Origin: a candidate division WOR-3 bacterium
GTDB taxonomy: Bacteria; Hydrothermota; Tepidihabitantia; Tepidihabitantales; Tepidihabitantaceae
Length of the DNA stretch: 64,000 nt
Direction of reading: 5' to 3'
Assembly: GCA_965648905.1 (NCBI GenBank)
Contig: CBFGIT010000001.1
Coordinates: 32,001-96,000, forward strand
The notes beneath the pieces were generated by a model. That model ran no database searches and was not told the DNA's origin. It was given only the letters and a program-made list of their open reading frames with translations. Position 1 is the stretch's first letter, and every line of letters begins with the position of its first letter. The position numbers and the translations under genes are program-made. Below, piece by piece: positions 35,257 through 42,925 of the stretch.

Positions 35257-37605
35257 ATGCTCATACTGAAAAAACTCGTGCCCGTGCTCGGCCTGTTCCT
35301 GGGCAATCTGGCCCTGGCCCAGTTGACCGAACTGTCAGAAGAAGACAAGACCCTGTCGCCCTATTTCTTTGTCCAGAGCGACGACCCGTCAGTTGACCGA
35401 CTGCCGCTGCTCAAGACCGAAGCGACAGTTGACATCGCCGGCGTCATCGCCGATGTGAAAGTCACCCAGGTTTACAAGAACGACGGCAAGCGGCCGATTG
35501 AGGCAGTTTACACGTTCCCGGCCTCGACCCGCGCCGCAGTCTACGCCATGAAGATGACCATCGGTGACCGGACCATTGTTGCCCGGATCAAGGAACGTGA
35601 TGAGGCCCGCCTCGACTACGAAGCGGCCAGACAGCAGGGCAAGAGCGCCTCGCTCTTAGAGCAGCAGCGGCCCAACGTGTTCCAGATGAACGTGGCGAAT
35701 ATCATGCCCGGCGACTACATCAAAGTCGAGATGAGTTATACTGAGCTGCTCGTGCCTGTCTCCGGCGTGTATGAGTTTGTCTACCCGACCGTGGTTGGCC
35801 CGCGCTACAACGGCAAGGCCGGGTCCGAGTCGCACAAGCCAGAGCAGTGGGTCAAGAGTCCCTACACCCGCGAGGGCGACGCACCGAGCTACGAGTTCGG
35901 CCTGACGGTCAATATCGTGGCCGGGATGCCACTACAGGACGTCTCCTGCCCGACCCATAAGACAATGATTGCTTTCAACGGCTTGAATGAGGCGAGCGTG
36001 CGGCTCGACCCGTCAGAGAAAGCCGGCGGCAACCGCGACTTCATCCTGCGCTACCGACTCGCCAGCAGCGGAATCCAGACCGGCCTCTTGCTCTACCCGG
36101 GCAAGGACGAGCAGTTCTTCCTCCTTATGCTGCAGCCGCCCAAAAGGGTTGAGGTCAGCCAGATTCCAGCGCGCGAGTACATCTTCATACTCGACGTGTC
36201 CGGCTCGATGCACGGGTTCCCTTTAGACATCTCCAAGAAGCTGATGCGGAACCTGCTCTCCAACCTGCGGCCCAAAGACTGCTTCAACATCCTGTTCTTC
36301 TCCGGCGGCAACTTCGCACTTTCGGAAAAGTCGCTGCCTGCGACCGAGAAGAACGTTGCGGATGCGCTTGCGACAATCGAAAAGCAGCGGGGCAGCGGCG
36401 GAACTGAACTCTTGCCCGCGCTCAGGCACGCGCTGGCGCTGCCGCGTACTGAAGGCGCGTCGCGCACCGTGGTCATTGCCACCGACGGCTACGTGACGGT
36501 CGAAACCGAGGCGTTCGACCTGATTCGGGACAATCTGGACAAGGCCAACCTGTTTGCTTTCGGCATCGGCTCCAGCGTCAACCGGTACATCATCGAAGGC
36601 ATGGCCCATGTCGGAATGGGCGAGCCATTCATCATCGACAAGCCGGAACGAGCCGAGGCCCAGGCCGAGAAGTTCCGAGCGTACATCGAAACTCCGGTGC
36701 TCACCGGTATCGACATCGACTTCCCCGGATTCGACGCCTATGACGTCGAGCCGAAGACTGTTCCGGACGTGACTGCGGACCGGCCCATCATCGTCTTCGG
36801 CAAGTACCGCGGCAGAGCCTCGGGTGCAATTACGGTACGCGGCTGGGCTGGCAAGGGCGGATACTCTGAGGCCGTCAAAGTCACTGACTTCCCGCCGGAC
36901 AAGAGGAACGCGGCCTTGCGCTACCTCTGGGCGCGACACCGGATTCAGCTTCTTGCTGACTACAACAACCTCGACGAGGACAAAGAGCGGGCCAAGGAAG
37001 TCACCAGGCTTGGCCTTGAGTACAACCTGCTGACCCGATACACCTCGTTTGTTGCCATTGACCAGCAGGTGCGTAATGTCGGCGGTAGACCAGAAGTTGT
37101 GGAGCAGCCGCTGCCCATGCCCGAAGGCGTATCCGACTATGCAGTCAGTGGCCGTGGGGTTGCCGGGTACTCTGGTTTGTACAAAGTCGGACGTCCATTT
37201 CTCGGTTCCACCAGTGCGCCGACCAGTGGTGGAGCGCTCATGCCCGAACCTGAAGCCGCATCCCAGTCCCCGGTGCTGCGTGGTACAGTCCGGCTTGTCA
37301 AGCTCGAGGCAATTGGCGGTCGGTCCGAGCAGTCGGTCAAAGGCGTCATCGAGAAGAAGCTTGCGGACATCCGGGCCGCATACGTACAGGAGCTTGCGAC
37401 CGACCCAACGCTCGCGGGCAGGCTCGCGCTTGAGTTCACCATCGGGCCTGACGGCACGGTACGCGAAGCCAGGGCGGTGCGCAACGAACTGAGCCCCGGA
37501 CTTGAGCGCAAGGTGCTCGAACTCGTGAGAAGCCTTCGCTTCCAGAAGTTTCAGGGCCGCACTACAACCGTATCGCTGGCCCTTGATCTAAGGCCATGGC
37601 CATGA
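35257..37605 (+). CDS. secreted VIT + vWA protein with TonB-C/AgmX-like C-terminus
   Basis: VIT (IEAVYTFP, LLEQQRPNVF), MIDAS DVSGSM, TDGYV, FGIGSSVN, YTSFVAID; 'GRLALEFTIGPDGTV'. Confidence 0.9.
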   Translation: MLILKKLVPVLGLFLGNLALAQLTELSEEDKTLSPYFFVQSDDPSVDRLPLLKTEATVDIAGVIADVKVTQVYKNDGKRPIEAVYTFPASTRAAVYAMKMTIGDRTIVARIKERDEARLDYEAARQQGKSASLLEQQRPNVFQMNVANIMPGDYIKVEMSYTELLVPVSGVYEFVYPTVVGPRYNGKAGSESHKPEQWVKSPYTREGDAPSYEFGLTVNIVAGMPLQDVSCPTHKTMIAFNGLNEASVRLDPSEKAGGNRDFILRYRLASSGIQTGLLLYPGKDEQFFLLMLQPPKRVEVSQIPAREYIFILDVSGSMHGFPLDISKKLMRNLLSNLRPKDCFNILFFSGGNFALSEKSLPATEKNVADALATIEKQRGSGGTELLPALRHALALPRTEGASRTVVIATDGYVTVETEAFDLIRDNLDKANLFAFGIGSSVNRYIIEGMAHVGMGEPFIIDKPERAEAQAEKFRAYIETPVLTGIDIDFPGFDAYDVEPKTVPDVTADRPIIVFGKYRGRASGAITVRGWAGKGGYSEAVKVTDFPPDKRNAALRYLWARHRIQLLADYNNLDEDKERAKEVTRLGLEYNLLTRYTSFVAIDQQVRNVGGRPEVVEQPLPMPEGVSDYAVSGRGVAGYSGLYKVGRPFLGSTSAPTSGGALMPEPEAASQSPVLRGTVRLVKLEAIGGRSEQSVKGVIEKKLADIRAAYVQELATDPTLAGRLALEFTIGPDGTVREARAVRNELSPGLERKVLELVRSLRFQKFQGRTTTVSLALDLRPWP

Positions 37606-38144
37606 ACGGACCAGACACAAACGACCTGATTGTCGGGTTCTACTCAGGCGCGTGCCCTGATCATGCTGGCCGCACATTGGACCAGATTCTGGGCTGGGAC
37701 GATGAACGCCTGGAAGAAGTCCACGACTACATCCAGTGGCTCTTTCCCATGGAACAGCCCAGCCCGGTCAACCCATCTGCTCCAGTGGTTCGGGAGGGGA
37801 CCCGGCGTGCGTTCAAAACAAGCCCGCTCCTGCGCGACAACCTGTGTCGCGCCTGTGCGCGGATGCTTGCCTTCTACGGTCTTGAGTGCGACCACGATGC
37901 TCTGAGTCCAGATGTCGTGCCCGGAGAAGACTTCGCCGACAAGTCGGGCCACTGGATGCATCCCGGTAACCACAATCTGCTCCGGCTTACAAGGATTCTG
38001 ACCAGTCTGCGCCTGCTCGGCCGAAGTCAGTGCTCAAAGAGCATCCATGCATGCTTGTCCCGACTCGCTGCCGAACACCCCACGCGCATCCCGACTATGA
38101 CCTTGCGCTTCTGGGATAGCACCCAGTCAGCGCCCGAGCCGTAA
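37602..38144 (+). CDS. opioid growth factor receptor (OGFr_N)-like protein
   Basis: LE.VHDYIQWLFP, HNLLRLTRIL.SL. Confidence 0.85.
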   Translation: MNGPDTNDLIVGFYSGACPDHAGRTLDQILGWDDERLEEVHDYIQWLFPMEQPSPVNPSAPVVREGTRRAFKTSPLLRDNLCRACARMLAFYGLECDHDALSPDVVPGEDFADKSGHWMHPGNHNLLRLTRILTSLRLLGRSQCSKSIHACLSRLAAEHPTRIPTMTLRFWDSTQSAPEP

Positions 38145-38177: not shown

Positions 38178-40028
38178 CTACAGCTTGACCAGCGTTACCG
38201 GACCTGGGCGAGCTGCTGAATCGACGCGGCGCACAACATAGGTGCCGGCAGGAAGTTCACTCAGGTCCAGCTCGATGCTGACGTCAGTTCCAGAACAGCC
38301 TACTGCCATGAGGAGCTGGCCGGCTATGTCGTAGATACCGAATGTCTTGCGGCCTGGCCCGGTCACGCGCAACAGAGCGCGCGACCCAGTGACCGGGTTG
38401 GGCCAAAGCGATAGCCGCTCCGGCCGAGTCGGGGCAGCCGGTGCTTCCACGCCGGGCACCGGACCAGCAATAACCAGCTTGCCATAAGCCGATGACGCAA
38501 GCAGGGAGTCTCCAGACAGCTCGGTCCGCCACCAGCCCGGCCAGGTACTGTCGCCGAGCATGCCGAGGAAAGCAACTCCAACCGTATCGCCGGTCGGGTC
38601 AATGTCCAGCTTGTACGGCAAAGTGCCGACGGGAACCGCGGCCTCGAACACAAGGCTTCCACCCGCCACGCTCACCGCAGCCTGTGAGCCCGCGACCGGC
38701 GAAGGCGGCCCCATGACACCGGCGCGGACATAGCGGTACAGGAGCTGGCTGACGCCCTGCTCGTTCACCAAGGCAAAGTAAGCGCCCTCGCTCATGTCAG
38801 CCGGCCACCGGCCGTCGTTGTTCTCATCGCAGAGCAGGACCACCTGGTCGAACGTGTCACGCCGATGCACTGCTGGCATCTCCGCGGCGATGTAGAGGTA
38901 AGCCGAATCGTGCACGGACCAGCCGCGGACACTGCCAGCCGGGAACGAAAGTCCGTAGACACCGCCGACATTGGAGGCGTCAAAGAAAGCTGCCTGGTCC
39001 CATTCATCCGGCATGAGCACGCCGTCAATCAACGGCGCCGGGCCCGCCGAGAATGAGGAACCGATAGTATCGGTCGAGACCATCAAGTGGGTTCGCATCG
39101 TGTCGTTACCCGGAACCTGGTCGCCAGGCAAACTGGTGAAGCACTCGACCTTGTATCCGGACCAGAGCTCGGCATTGGGAGTCCATGTGCCGGTGCACGT
39201 GACCACGGCCGAGTCAGAAGGCGCAATCGAGCCCAGGACCAGGTTCTCGCTGAATATCCGGTTGCCGGCTGAGTCGATGCGTACCGTTACCGGCACGTTG
39301 GTCTGGGCCGCAGTGCCGAGGTTCGCCACCAGGCAGCTCGGCGTAACCGGAATGCTGCTGTGGAGCCGACCGCCTGCAGGTGCGATGATGCGGCTGACGG
39401 CAACGTCGTTGGCCGGACGGGACAGAATGATGTCGTCGGCGAAGACCTTCGCCCAGGGCGTCCCTCAGCCGCCGCTGGTCCAGGCGTACAGCGCGACCCC
39501 GACCTTGCGCACCCGTGCACGGCTGACTCCGCGCAGATTCTGCGCCAGCTCGTCAGCCAGATTCATCTCGTACTGCTGCCAGCCCGGATTGGTCACTTCA
39601 ATCAGATGGAAGGTATCGGACGGGGCCCACGTGCAGTACTGGTTGTGGTAGTAGAAGTAGGTTTCACCCAGGACCGCGCCGGAAGAGTCAAGAAAACTGA
39701 CCATGATGCTTGCGACCGGCCAGCACGTGGACGAACCGCCACCCAGTTCGAATGCTGCCCAGAACGACAGGTCCATGGACAAAGTCGTGACCGGCACGAC
39801 CTGACGCAGAGCCAACCAGCCTGGCCCGGCGTAAAGGTAGCCTTGAGCTTCGTAGTCCGGGTCAGGATGGTAGGTGACGTCGCGGCCGAACGTGACCGTG
39901 CCGCTGCCGCCCTGTTCCTGATTCCAGCCCACGGTCAACTCCTGCTCAAAGTCACCGTTGGTGAGCAGATTCTGGGCTGGGGTCAGGCCCAGAGCGAGCA
40001 ACGAGCAGACGATTACTCGGGCAATCAT
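38178..40028 (-). CDS. secreted CTD protein (CBM-like + CARDB + CBM9-like) with in-frame TGA at codon 188; putative selenoprotein, 616 aa
   Basis: ORFs 39465-40028 and 38178-39329 share a frame and are joined by an open stretch after one TGA (39467-39465). Signal peptide lies only in the 5' part and the CTD only in the 3' part. Confidence 0.8.
39419..39464 (-). promoter_or_regulatory. bacterial SECIS-like element
   Basis: TGA + 11 nt + GGCGAA-GGTC-TTCGCC hairpin (39453-39438); lower stem GGGAC/GTCCC. Confidence 0.7.
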
Positions 40029-40091
40029 AGAACCTCCAGTAGCATCTCTAGGACTCTATGCCGGTCCGGTCGGAAGTCAACTGCGGAAGGT

Positions 40092-40664
40092 CTACTTCTT
40101 CTGGCTTCCTCGACCCGGTGCTTCGAGCGGTACGCCGCTCCGGCACAAGGGACACCGAGCCGGCTCAAAGGTCGCGACCGGCTGCCGATACGCGGCAAAG
40201 AACGGTACGCCGAAATCTACGCCCGTACTCCGGTCAATGTACACGCCGACGCCTGCGATATTGGTCGGGAACGACTGAAGCGCTTCCATGGTCTCCCTGA
40301 TTGACCCGCCTGTGGTCATGACATCATCAACCACGAGCACACGGTCGTGCGGCCCGACCTCGAACCCACGGCCAATCCTGCGGCCGGTCTCAGCCTTTTC
40401 CGCAATAATCGAGCGGCAGCCAAGCTGACGGGCGACTTCGTAGGCGATGATGATGCCGCCGGTGGTCGGCCCGCAGACCACGGTGATGCCTGAGGCGCGG
40501 AAGTGCTCGGCGACCGAGCGGGCAAACTGCTCGCACACCGGCGGGTGCTCGAGAATCCGGAACTTCTCGAAGTACTTGTCCGAATGCCGACCCGAGGTCA
40601 GAAGAAAGTGACCCTCGCGCAGCACGCCATACCGCTTCATCGCCTCAATGAGTGCGTCACTCAC
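40092..40664 (-). CDS. pyrE: orotate phosphoribosyltransferase
   Basis: GHFLLTSGRHS..Y, VLVVDDVMTTGGS. Confidence 0.96.
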   Translation of the reverse strand: MSDALIEAMKRYGVLREGHFLLTSGRHSDKYFEKFRILEHPPVCEQFARSVAEHFRASGITVVCGPTTGGIIIAYEVARQLGCRSIIAEKAETGRRIGRGFEVGPHDRVLVVDDVMTTGGSIRETMEALQSFPTNIAGVGVYIDRSTGVDFGVPFFAAYRQPVATFEPARCPLCRSGVPLEAPGRGSQKK

Positions 40665-41358
40665 CTGCACCTCCGAGTTGTGCTCGAATCTCAGCCACTG
40701 CCTTGAGCGGGTCAGGCGCGTCGTAGACTGGTCGGCCCACGACGATATAGTCGGCTCCGGCCCGGGTTGCCTGGGCCGGAGTCATGGTCCGCGCTTGGTC
40801 GTCCTTGCCGCCACCAAGCCTGATGCCCGGGGTGACAATCTTGAAGCCCGGCCCACACGCGTCGCGTACCACGCCAATCTCATGCGGCGAGCAAACCGCA
40901 CCGTCACAGCCTGACTCGTAGGCCAGCCGCGCCAGCGCCCGCACCCGCTCTTCAACCGACTGCCGACAGCCGGTTACCTGTTCAAGCTCATTTGCGTCAA
41001 GGCTCGTGAGCACGGTCACGCCCAGAATCAGGGGTCGCTTGTCGCCAAACTCGGCTGATGCTCGTGCCGCCTCAGCCATCATCTTCGCACCACCAAAGGC
41101 ATGGACAGTCAGCAGTCGCACGCCCATCTCACCCGCAGCCCGGACTGCGCTGCCGACCACGGACGGAATGTCGTGGAACTTCAGGTCAAGGAACACCTCG
41201 ACCCCGGTGGCTGCGAACTTCCTGATGAACTCGGGCCCGCCCCGGCCGAAAAGGTCCATCTGCAGTTTGTAGCAGTCAACGCTCCGGCCAAGTCGGCGTA
41301 GCCATTCGAGAGCCTTGTCAGTGTCAGCAAGGTTCAGAGCCAGTGCCAGCTTGGTCAT
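40657..41358 (-). CDS. pyrF: orotidine-5'-phosphate decarboxylase
   Basis: FLDLKFHDIP, VTVLTS, VTPGIR, IVVGRP. Confidence 0.96.
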   Translation of the reverse strand: MTKLALALNLADTDKALEWLRRLGRSVDCYKLQMDLFGRGGPEFIRKFAATGVEVFLDLKFHDIPSVVGSAVRAAGEMGVRLLTVHAFGGAKMMAEAARASAEFGDKRPLILGVTVLTSLDANELEQVTGCRQSVEERVRALARLAYESGCDGAVCSPHEIGVVRDACGPGFKIVTPGIRLGGGKDDQARTMTPAQATRAGADYIVVGRPVYDAPDPLKAVAEIRAQLGGAGE

Positions 41359-42209
41359 CAGTGTATTCTCCTGTCTGCGAGGTCTGCAACAACCGACAAT
41401 GCCACGTGCGGGTTGACCAGGCTCGCAGTCCCGACCTGCACCATCTGCGCACCGGCACGCAGGAAGTCCTGCGCATCCCGGCCGCACATGATTCCGCCAC
41501 AACCGATGACCGGAATCTTCACCGCGCGGCTGACCCGGTCAACGCAGTACAGGGCGAACGGCTTGAGCGCGGGCCCGGAAATGCCGCCGGTCCGGCCGCC
41601 GAGAAAAGCCCGGCCCGAATCGTCCATGGCCATGCCGAACAGAGTATTGATCACCGTCACCGCATCGGCTCCGGCCGACTCGGCCGCACGCGCGGTCTCA
41701 GCCGGGTCAACGAAGTTGGCAGTGAGCTTGACGATAATGGTTTTCTCAGTTGCCCTGCGTGCGCGCCGCGTTATCTGTTCGACCAGTTTCGGGCTCTGGC
41801 CGAACGCTGCGCCGCCTTCGTTCACGTTGGGACACGAGACGTTCAGCTCAATCGCATCGACCCGCTCATGGTCCAGTCCGAGTACCAGCTCACGGTACTC
41901 GTCGACTGTGAAACCGGCAACGTTCACCACCACGCGACACTTGAGCCGGCCCAGTGACGGCAGGACACTATCCCGGAACGTCTGAAGTCCTGGGTTCTCA
42001 AGTCCGACCGAGTTGATGATTCCGCCCGGGAACTCATAGATTCTGGGCGGTGGATTGCCCGGCCGTGGCTCAAGTGTTATGCCTTTGGTGACCACGCCGC
42101 CGAGCCGGTTCGCAACAAAAGGGAACTGCAGGCCAAAGCCGAACGTGCCCGAGGCAGCCAGCACCGGGTTGGCGAATGTGGTCCGGCCGATGGTCACGCT
42201 GCGGGTCAC
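41358..42209 (-). CDS. pyrD: dihydroorotate dehydrogenase family 1B catalytic subunit
   Basis: NPVLAASGTFG, NSVGLENPG, ELNVSCPN, GGISGPALKP. Confidence 0.96.
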   Translation of the reverse strand: MTRSVTIGRTTFANPVLAASGTFGFGLQFPFVANRLGGVVTKGITLEPRPGNPPPRIYEFPGGIINSVGLENPGLQTFRDSVLPSLGRLKCRVVVNVAGFTVDEYRELVLGLDHERVDAIELNVSCPNVNEGGAAFGQSPKLVEQITRRARRATEKTIIVKLTANFVDPAETARAAESAGADAVTVINTLFGMAMDDSGRAFLGGRTGGISGPALKPFALYCVDRVSRAVKIPVIGCGGIMCGRDAQDFLRAGAQMVQVGTASLVNPHVALSVVADLADRRIH

Positions 42210-42925
42210 AGCTCAACCTCGTTCAGTTGCACGACCGGCCCTTGTTCGCAGAAGCGCACAAACCCGCCGCCCTTTTTGGGCAGGGCGCAGCAGTAGCAGA
42301 TGCCGGTACCACAGCCCATCCGTTCCTCGACAAATCCCCAGACCGAAACCGGGTCAACTCGTCTCACCAGGTCGGCAAGCATCGGTCTGGGCCCGCACGC
42401 GAAAACAACCGGTTGCGATATTTTCTTGATACCGGGTTCGGCCAGTTCGGTCACCGGCCCGGCATACCCTAGGCTGCCGTCGTCGGTCGCGACGCGGACC
42501 GGAACTTCAAGCGCACGGAAGTCGCGCACTAGTATCAGTTGCTTTCTGGTCCGCGCACCGAGGAACACCCGGACACGATTAGAATGTGCCGACTGCCGAC
42601 ACAAGAACAGCAGCGGTGCTGCGCCGACCCCACCGCCGACAAGAAAGACATCACGGCCCTCAAACATCGGGGCCGGCTTACCCAGAGGCCCGAGCACGTC
42701 AAGCTCACTTCCCTGACCCAACGTTGCCAAGGCTGCCGTACCCCGGCCCTTGACCTGAAACACAAGCCGCAATCGGTCCTGTTCGACATCAGCCACGGAA
42801 ATCGGCCGCCGGAGCAAAGGGTCCGGGCCGGCCGACACCTTCACGTTGAGGAACTGCCCGGGCCTCACCCTGCGGGCGAGGTGCGGCTCTCTTATCCAGA
42901 ACGAAAAAATGCCCGCGGCGAGCAT
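42206..42925 (-). CDS. pyrK: dihydroorotate dehydrogenase electron transfer subunit
   Basis: PGQF, LRRPISV, GGGVG, CGP, EERMGCGTGICYCC...C..GPV. Confidence 0.95.
   Translation of the reverse strand: MLAAGIFSFWIREPHLARRVRPGQFLNVKVSAGPDPLLRRPISVADVEQDRLRLVFQVKGRGTAALATLGQGSELDVLGPLGKPAPMFEGRDVFLVGGGVGAAPLLFLCRQSAHSNRVRVFLGARTRKQLILVRDFRALEVPVRVATDDGSLGYAGPVTELAEPGIKKISQPVVFACGPRPMLADLVRRVDPVSVWGFVEERMGCGTGICYCCALPKKGGGFVRFCEQGPVVQLNEVEL

Follow-up and report, generated by a model that had tools for sequence, protein, structure and literature searches.

A gene on the minus strand of a 64,000-nt stretch of DNA from a candidate division WOR-3 bacterium (hereafter the window; contig CBFGIT010000001.1 of GenBank assembly GCA_965648905.1, positions 32,001 to 96,000) is interrupted by an in-frame UGA codon that appears to encode selenocysteine (Sec). 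Conservation, covariation, the Sec machinery of the genome, and Sec/Cys pairs among homologs together argue very strongly for Sec insertion at this codon, UGA188. Taken as a whole, the observations are best explained, with high confidence, by the hairpin downstream of the UGA being a functional bacterial Sec insertion sequence (SECIS) and the gene encoding a 616-aa exported protein. Genetic code table 11 splits the gene into 39465-40028 (187 aa) and 38178-39329 (383 aa), both on the minus strand, and these two annotated fragments are almost certainly one secreted protein. The open reading frame (ORF) runs on the minus strand from an ATG at 40028 to the TGA at 39467-39465, and the frame stays open for 428 codons past it, up to a TAG at 38180-38178. 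Its translation agrees with the 616-aa read-through product proposed in an initial annotation of the sequence, with the context ...YAWTSGG-U-GTPWAKVFADDIILSRPANDVAV... and U as residue 188.

In the proposed mechanism, SelB with Sec-tRNA(UCA) would bind the GGUC-capped stem 11 nt downstream and decode UGA188. The product would carry, in order, a signal peptide, a Sec-bearing jelly roll resembling carbohydrate-binding modules (CBMs), Ig-like and unassigned domains, and a sorting tail of the type IX secretion system (T9SS). Termination at the UGA by release factor 2 (RF2) would yield a product without the last strand of the sandwich and without the sorting tail, and therefore only the Sec form should fold and be exported.

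Conservation of the hairpin and of the downstream frame

The element described in the initial annotation, a UGA followed by an 11-nt spacer and the hairpin GGCGAA-GGUC-UUCGCC, is present on the minus strand, with the stem halves GGCGAA at 39453-39448 and TTCGCC at 39443-39438 around the loop GGTC at 39447-39444. The bacterial SECIS model (PMC13188914 Fig. 2A, section 5) describes a loop of 3-9 nt with a G among its first two nucleotides, an upper stem of 4-16 bp, 16-37 nt from the UGA to the loop, and a minimum free energy (MFE) at or below −7.5 kcal/mol. Here the loop is GGUC, the stem has 6 bp, the loop begins 17 nt from the UGA, the 21-nt hairpin has a folding energy of −8.9 kcal/mol, and the in-frame UGA joins two coding segments. 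Without its flanks, the bare 16-nt stem-loop reaches a marginal −7.3 kcal/mol. The MFE structure includes the hairpin in 2 of 3 folded fragments (58 and 38 nt; the 101-nt fragment folds without it), and the 21-nt hairpin alone has a z-score of −2.28 (6/200 shuffles). A loose genome-wide scan gave 1143 hairpin matches among 93,297 TGA triplets, and an Rfam search matched no SECIS model, returning two chance matches at E 0.56 and 2.1. Taken alone, then, the hairpin is weak evidence, not strongly beyond chance. Local RNA folding energy was dropped as proof, the longer fragments not being significant; the hairpin is significant because it is conserved in homologs, not because of its folding energy.

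That conservation is pronounced. Pairing is found in 99.6% of 510 cells across 85 aligned elements, versus 19-64% in slid controls. Two-sided changes occur in 4 of the 6 stem pairs (for example, A-U in 48 elements and G-C in 33), and none of 500 shuffles reached the covariation score. The A-U/G-C change alters the protein, from AKVFA to AEVSA; the protein therefore follows the RNA. Third-position entropy is 0.52-0.56 bits at the three hairpin codons versus 1.38-1.94 at 20 other conserved four-fold codons. Among 125 distinct complete domains, 121 have the UGA, 119 of which keep 6/6 pairs while 2 keep 5, bearing out the expectation of the initial annotation that hairpin and downstream frame would be conserved in homologs. 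Their loops are GGTC (106), AGTT (12), or GGTT (3), and their spacers measure 11 nt (59), 14 nt (59), 17 nt (2), or 20 nt (1). The 20-nt spacer of L074 (G253:C16) and the 17-nt spacer of L111 (G185:C6) are longer than the 11 nt of Escherichia coli, with the stem intact in both. These 121 variants, with spacers from 11 to 20 nt and a near-invariant stem, form a natural series for studies of recognition by SelB.

The four domains without UGA keep 3, 3, 4, and 5 stem pairs. A TGC codon stands exactly at the Sec position, with a broken stem (3-4/6 pairs), in L127, L128, and L130 (L129 duplicates L130), and these homologs are single ORFs. In a quick tree, built with the Cys and Sec-loop columns left out of the alignment, they fall among Sec members. 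Judged from their sequences, they fit a loss from Sec to Cys followed by decay of the SECIS. At L129/L130 a Sec member adjoins a TGC paralog with a broken hairpin, and both Cys lineages gain a second Cys eight residues downstream (AEVC). A further paralog without UGA, L112 in G193, was set aside as a Cys homolog, its alignment at the Sec position being ambiguous. UGA homologs in other Sec-using organisms and Cys homologs, both expected of a bacterial selenoprotein gene, have been found.

It is scarcely credible that the UGA is a true stop, leaving a 187-aa protein and a separate downstream gene, or a family of pseudogenes. Gene callers do annotate the locus in this way, RF2 is present, and the hairpin alone is within chance for longer fragments. 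Yet among the UGA-bearing domains inspected the stop is always TGA and never TAA or TAG (85/86, with a contig end truncating the other one), the next 15 residues show in-frame conservation and make the fold complete, the signal peptide and the sorting tail lie on opposite sides of it, the TGC homologs are single ORFs, and the wobble positions in the hairpin are frozen. No start preceded by a ribosome-binding site lies downstream: the first in-frame starts after the UGA are GTG codons at 39329 (46 codons past the UGA), 39296, and 39206, and none of them is preceded by GGAGG. The initial annotation had named a ribosome-binding site and start of the 3' ORF's own as grounds for abandoning the read-through; no start of this kind was found. 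The pseudogene reading of the family was rejected on the same evidence.

Selenocysteine machinery and genetic code

The genome (3.0 Mb, 99.6% complete) contains the components expected of a bacterium that makes selenoproteins, namely SelA, SelB, tRNA-Sec, and SelD. tRNA-Sec was found at 72.2 bits; selB, selA, and two selD genes score over cut-off, each selD has an internal TGA, and selA lies on the same contig as the gene, about 50 kb away. The selD genes are at G000 C4:87631-88554 and C8:88040-88942, both with a Sec-type TGA, and one of them adjoins selB.

A different decoding of the UGA, as Cys, Trp, or Gly, would require either a genome-wide code change or a SelB-dependent tRNA that inserts Cys, as selC*-type tRNAs do. 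The TGC homologs show that Cys is tolerated at the position, but this alternative is very improbable. RF2 is present over cut-off, and only 1 of the 54 tRNAs found has a UCA anticodon, this one being the canonical tRNA-Sec; UGA is therefore not reassigned genome-wide. TGA also terminates 478 of 1082 stop-free stretches of at least 400 codons (a count that includes non-coding frames) as well as a pyrF-like ORF in the window, and a genome-wide code change was rejected on these grounds. Moreover, the genome has both selA and selD, and the family co-occurs with selA.

A paralogous, phylum-wide family

The initial annotation missed a large paralogous family that extends through the phylum. The domain occurs in eight copies in the genome, with 29-58% identity to the one described here, and 8/8 paralogs share the location of the TGA, a hairpin of 6-7 bp, and a TAG at the end. 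None of these eight read-through ORFs ends in TGA; homologs elsewhere do end in TGA or TAA. Seven paralogs reach a C-terminal sorting-type domain (by Pfam match in six, by sequence appearance in the C52 copy) through different middles (none, Ig-like, or Kelch), and one is a bare domain. As judged from the homologs recovered, the family has expanded in one class of the phylum and in a few other families besides, with up to 9 copies per genome.

Family members were matched in 107 of 272 genomes of the phylum, with one TGA in 149 of the 150 matches listed (110 weaker matches besides); the exception stops at a contig end. selA is found in 122 of the 272. Both occur together in 101 genomes, the family only in 6, selA only in 21, and neither in 144, such that 101/107 family genomes have selA versus 6 family genomes among the 150 selA-negative ones. 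Among the latter six, 4 of the 5 examined have selB or tRNA-Sec; the sixth, G160, was outside this check. In G131 the gene immediately downstream of selA is a family member, and in G133 another is no more than 3 kb from selB; such linkage holds in a minority of genomes. In L156 (G133:C1:1640500-1650000), L157 (G113:C48), and L155 (G131:C137), selB or selA and thioredoxin-like UxxC candidates (EDFUPFC, EETUASC, and EGUGSC across these clusters) are grouped with family genes, and G133 and G113 hold further UxxC-type candidates in the same region. These arrangements could represent a selenoprotein island.

Outside the phylum one locus was seen, on a 1980-bp contig from a bin labelled Desulfuromonadaceae; it nests among WOR-3 sequences and may be misbinned. 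Twenty distant truncated representatives have WOR-3 names or no taxon. Public entries gave 302 matches, and among the 120 listed, query coverage is 88-91%, ending at the UGA; of the 315 matches to database representatives (HMMER), 150 were listed, and most of these stop at profile position 160-170. Truncation at the UGA thus affects hundreds of database entries. A word-indexed search for longer read-through homologs found none among 8000 candidates, which marks the limit of its sensitivity, whereas the full HMMER scan did recover some.

Several observations weigh against a functional SECIS and Sec insertion. The folding energy of the longer fragments is not unusual (z-scores +0.52, −0.65, −0.44, and −0.33). 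A bulged U in the upper stem is important for E. coli SelB, and the bulged U of the E. coli fdhF stem is absent here and in the family alignment. One member, L105 (G139:C196:4695-5246), has two in-frame TGA codons in the domain, which could mean either a second Sec or a pseudogene. G128 (96% complete) has a UGA-bearing member, and no match to selA, selB, or tRNA-Sec was found in it. Kinship among genomes also inflates the co-occurrence and covariation counts, the former being given without a P value.

Predicted fold and export

The Sec-containing domain was modelled with AlphaFold (AF2) on an alignment of 85 sequences, with U entered as C, and gave a jelly roll with a mean predicted local distance difference test score (pLDDT) of 97.4 and a predicted template modelling score (pTM) of 0.92. 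U lies in the loop between model strands 156-165 and 173-184, and the residues after the UGA form the last strand, as the initial annotation had proposed. A single-sequence AlphaFold model of domains 1 and 2 was uninformative (pLDDT 34) and was discarded.

In a fold search, the best match was the C-terminal domain of the tailspike 5w6h (Z 14.9, root mean square deviation (rmsd) 2.3 over 142 residues), and the porphyran-binding CBM 8xmz scored Z 13.6 (rmsd 2.4 over 131). The predicted fold is like that of 5w6h and of a series of beta-sandwich CBMs, comprising 8xmz, CBM16 2zew, CBM4 1gui/4bj0, the hyaluronan CBM 4d0q, and CBM61 2xom, with Z 10.3-14.9, rmsd 2.3-3.5, and 131-143 residues aligned over the whole set. 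Identity to the fold-matched CBMs is 14-22%, and conserved Trp/Tyr are common to both; to our knowledge, none of these CBM structures carries Sec. At the sequence level there is a weak match to a module of 5x7o (E 0.021), no Pfam CBM match for the domain, and in one paralog a match to NF033675 far below cut-off (E 0.066). The label "CBM" therefore rests on the predicted fold, and a shared fold by itself shows no function.

The Ig-like domain that follows matches CARDB, which the initial annotation had suggested, weakly and below cut-off (PF07705 at residues 229-283, 11.7 bits versus a cut-off of 22.7, E 0.31). The third domain (about residues 318-520) matched nothing in Pfam or NCBIfam; we take it to have a CBM9/DOMON-like look. 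The tail matches TIGR04183 at 23.7 bits versus a cut-off of 23, with PF18962 below cut-off (E 7e-5), and a search of the genome for SprA and the PorV family, among the T9SS components, found SprA and 14 PorV-family matches over cut-off. Export by T9SS is likely. Fourteen PorV-family matches represent a large expansion.

Likely cysteine partner and proposed role of selenocysteine

Nearly every UGA member has a Cys that could pair with Sec. Among the 121, 59 have C102 only and 45 only a Sec-loop Cys, while 16 have both and 1 has neither; 120 thus have C102 or a Sec-loop Cys. The initial annotation had offered two partners, of which C102 (SSTCWP) fares better than C132 (YCTW): in the 60 members without a Cys in the Sec loop, C102 is found in 59 and C132 in 26. 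W103 and W134 are conserved in 73 and 84 of 85. From jelly-roll topology, the C102, C132, and Sec loops presumably converge at one end, near these two Trp residues. With proximity taken from topology, C102 is the better candidate for the Sec partner in this clade.

What Sec does in the protein is a matter on which we can be only tentative. Our leading proposal is that Sec, placed in a surface loop at the sandwich tip, forms a selenylsulfide with a nearby Cys, which would be C102 in this clade and a vicinal or near-vicinal Cys in other clades. Se-S bonds are more resistant to reduction than disulfides. In a reducing habitat, such a bridge would fix the aromatic-lined binding loops of a secreted binding module in place and allow them to be tuned by redox, and the family makes it possible to test Sec as a reduction-tolerant bridge in exported proteins. 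Two observations speak against the bridge. The distribution of C102 and loop Cys largely follows two big clades, with only 2-3 changes forced by well-supported branches. Several distant read-through homologs (e.g., P0153, P0201, P0204, and P0243) are also without a Cys in the Sec loop, and the fold therefore does not need the bridge.

Next in our ranking comes binding of a metal or metalloid (Hg, Cu, Ag, or As) at the cell surface, with no structural or redox bridge, which we consider unlikely. It would accord with the CU motifs of the catalogued metal-related SaoL, SaoC, HgcA, and MbdU (PMC13188914 Table 1), and with how common a Cys-Sec pair is: 70 of 101 database representatives of 170-215 aa have Cys as their final residue, directly ahead of the presumed UGA. 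In this clade, however, U is preceded by Gly or Thr and the sole consistent partner is C102; the family shows no conserved cluster of His or Cys, and the scaffold resembles sugar-binding modules.

Somewhat less likely still is that Sec serves as a nucleophile for catalysis or capture, in which case the domain would be a small lectin-fold enzyme that carries out thiol-disulfide exchange with, or covalently captures, an extracellular substrate. The sequence around U varies freely, the partner Cys shifts place, distant homologs are without both Sec and Cys, and the fold matches included no enzyme with such an arrangement, even though Sec is kept in 121/125 domains, the genome's secreted TlpA-like UxxC candidates could reduce it, and most characterised selenoproteins are redox enzymes (PMC13188914).

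Last, and improbable, is the idea that the identity of Sec is minor and that the UGA with its SECIS acts as a selenium-dependent switch for folding and export of surface proteins. The UGA immediately precedes the last strand and, wherever an architecture includes a sorting tail, lies upstream of that tail; this position would suit such a switch, as would the existence of homologs without Cys or Sec. Against this, a nearby Cys is found in 120/121 members and clean losses go to Cys, which argues for chemistry at the Sec residue.

Gene layout and neighbourhood

The features of the gene are collected in Table 1. The promoter-like site is a consensus match only, with 1 seen versus 0.3 expected in shuffles. 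Directly upstream on the same strand, an operon that we take, from sequence appearance, to be pyrK/pyrD/pyrF/pyrE-like adjoins the gene (40092-42925, minus). At the 3' end, a 782-aa ORF, presumably of VIT/vWA type, and a 182-aa ORF, which to us resembles an opioid-growth-factor-receptor-like domain, converge on the gene from the plus strand (35257-38144).

Table 1. Features of the Sec-containing gene and its surroundings, in window coordinates.
Feature	Position	Strand	Basis
Complete gene with UGA as Sec, 616 aa, ends TAG	38178..40028	minus	read-through translation
In-frame TGA, Sec residue U188 (predicted)	39465..39467	minus	read-through translation; conservation in paralogs and phylum homologs
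Sigma-70-like promoter TTGACT, 16 nt, TAGAGT, between the end of the pyrE-like ORF and the gene	40053..40080	minus	consensus match
Shine-Dalgarno GGAGG, 4 nt before ATG	40033..40037	minus	sequence
Putative N-terminal signal peptide, residues 1-18	39975..40028	minus	inspection of the sequence, with a basic N-terminus, a hydrophobic core, and P-A/Q
Sec-containing CBM-like jelly-roll domain, residues 19-203	39420..39974	minus	AlphaFold model and fold search
Cys102 (SSTCWP), likely Sec partner	39723..39725	minus	loop between model strands E67-77 and E85-94; proximity from topology
Cys132 (YCTW), second candidate partner, less consistent	39633..39635	minus	absent in 42/121 UGA members
11-nt spacer GGGACGCCCTG	39454..39464	minus	sequence; letters vary, 11, 14, 17, or 20 nt in homologs
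Bacterial SECIS hairpin GGCGAA-GGUC-UUCGCC (probable), over codons (W)-A-K-V-F-A	39438..39453	minus	folding, covariation, wobble entropy
Last beta-strand of jelly roll, residues 192-203, made only after read-through	39420..39455	minus	model strand E173-184
Ig-like domain, CARDB-like, about residues 206-317, boundaries approximate	39078..39413	minus	weak PF07705 match below cut-off
Third domain, about residues 318-520, common to paralog C52	38469..39077	minus	paralog comparison
T9SS type A C-terminal sorting domain, about residues 541-616	38181..38408	minus	TIGR04183 and PF18962 matches

Other candidate selenoproteins of the genome

A crude genome-wide read-through scan gave 303 candidates, 32 with a hairpin, and recovered 5/8 paralogs; its output is a source of leads only. 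L160 and L161 (G000 C3:95969 and C21:22924, both minus) are secreted TlpA/ResA-like proteins with the UxxC motifs SGUQGC and SSUPQC; a hairpin with an AGTTA loop follows the TGA at 16 nt, and read-through adds a FlgD-like or sorting-type tail. L163, L164, L165, and L162 (G000 C16:1978, plus; C8:33864, plus; C11:21813, minus; C1:118060, plus) are UGA-split exported candidates with hairpins and the motifs NHCU, CGGU, SGUC, and STUGYC. Three of these four have a sorting-like tail by appearance, and none of the four has an NCBIfam match.

One may speculate that WOR-3 has an extracellular selenoproteome exported as T9SS cargo, in which Sec would take the place of ordinary disulfide chemistry, acting on non-enzymatic binding modules as a selenylsulfide clamp or redox switch, and the supply of selenium would gate folding and export. 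We hold this broader proposal to be possible, though doubtful. It would span the jelly-roll family and unrelated UGA-split secreted proteins of the genome (TlpA-like, FG-GAP propeller-like, and others). If true, Sec on a lectin fold would have a structural or binding-site function, unlike the roles in oxidoreductases and as a metal ligand that prevail in the catalogue of bacterial selenoproteins.

Comparison with known systems

That catalogue comprises 119 families in PMC13188914 Table 1, and, compared by name, none of them is a CBM-like, jelly-roll, or T9SS-cargo protein; nor does the text of PMC13188914 contain "WOR-3", "carbohydrate", "T9SS", or "signal peptide". The full protein and four paralog domains gave no match to a Pfam or NCBIfam selenoprotein family at E up to 1, and the jelly-roll domain itself is covered by no Pfam or NCBIfam model. 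Many catalogued families have NCBIfam models and none matches the domain, the family being set apart here by names and models. A literature search, which left most subscription journals outside its reach, found nothing on selenoproteins of WOR-3, on selenoproteins with type IX secretion, or on CBMs with Sec. According to the deep-Sep report (PMC12013277), families without Cys homologs may be missed, and the rarity of Cys homologs may explain why finders based on Cys pairs missed this one.

The gene also compares closely with the best known bacterial example. E. coli fdhF (NC_000913.3) has a TGA followed by 11 nt and GGTTGCA-GGTC-TGCACC, and shares with the gene described here the 11-nt spacer, the A-GGUC-U apex, and the position of a short stem within the ORF; SelA, SelB, SelC, and SelD are present in this genome, as for the E. 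coli system. The initial annotation called the element fdhF-like, which is apt for spacer and loop and fails for the missing bulge and for the loop onset, 17 nt after the UGA here versus 18 nt in E. coli, the stem here being a perfect 6 bp. About half of the family departs further from E. coli fdhF with a 14-nt spacer, and the encoded protein is unrelated to formate dehydrogenase.

With T9SS type A cargo the protein has in common a signal peptide and a C-terminal sorting domain; unlike the usual cargo, its sorting domain is reached only via UGA read-through, and the organism lies outside Bacteroidota. With catalogued bacterial selenoproteins the family shares an in-frame UGA, a canonical bacterial SECIS, and Sec/Cys pairs in homologs, and motifs of the CU and GU-G type occur in the catalogue as well (PMC13188914). 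On the sequence evidence assembled here, this is very likely a large family of exported selenoproteins on a lectin-like fold, found in uncultured bacteria and absent from that catalogue, with a textbook recoding mechanism. To a catalogue dominated by oxidoreductases and metal-related proteins it would add a paralog-rich family that combines a sugar-binding fold with a signal peptide and a tail for secretion.

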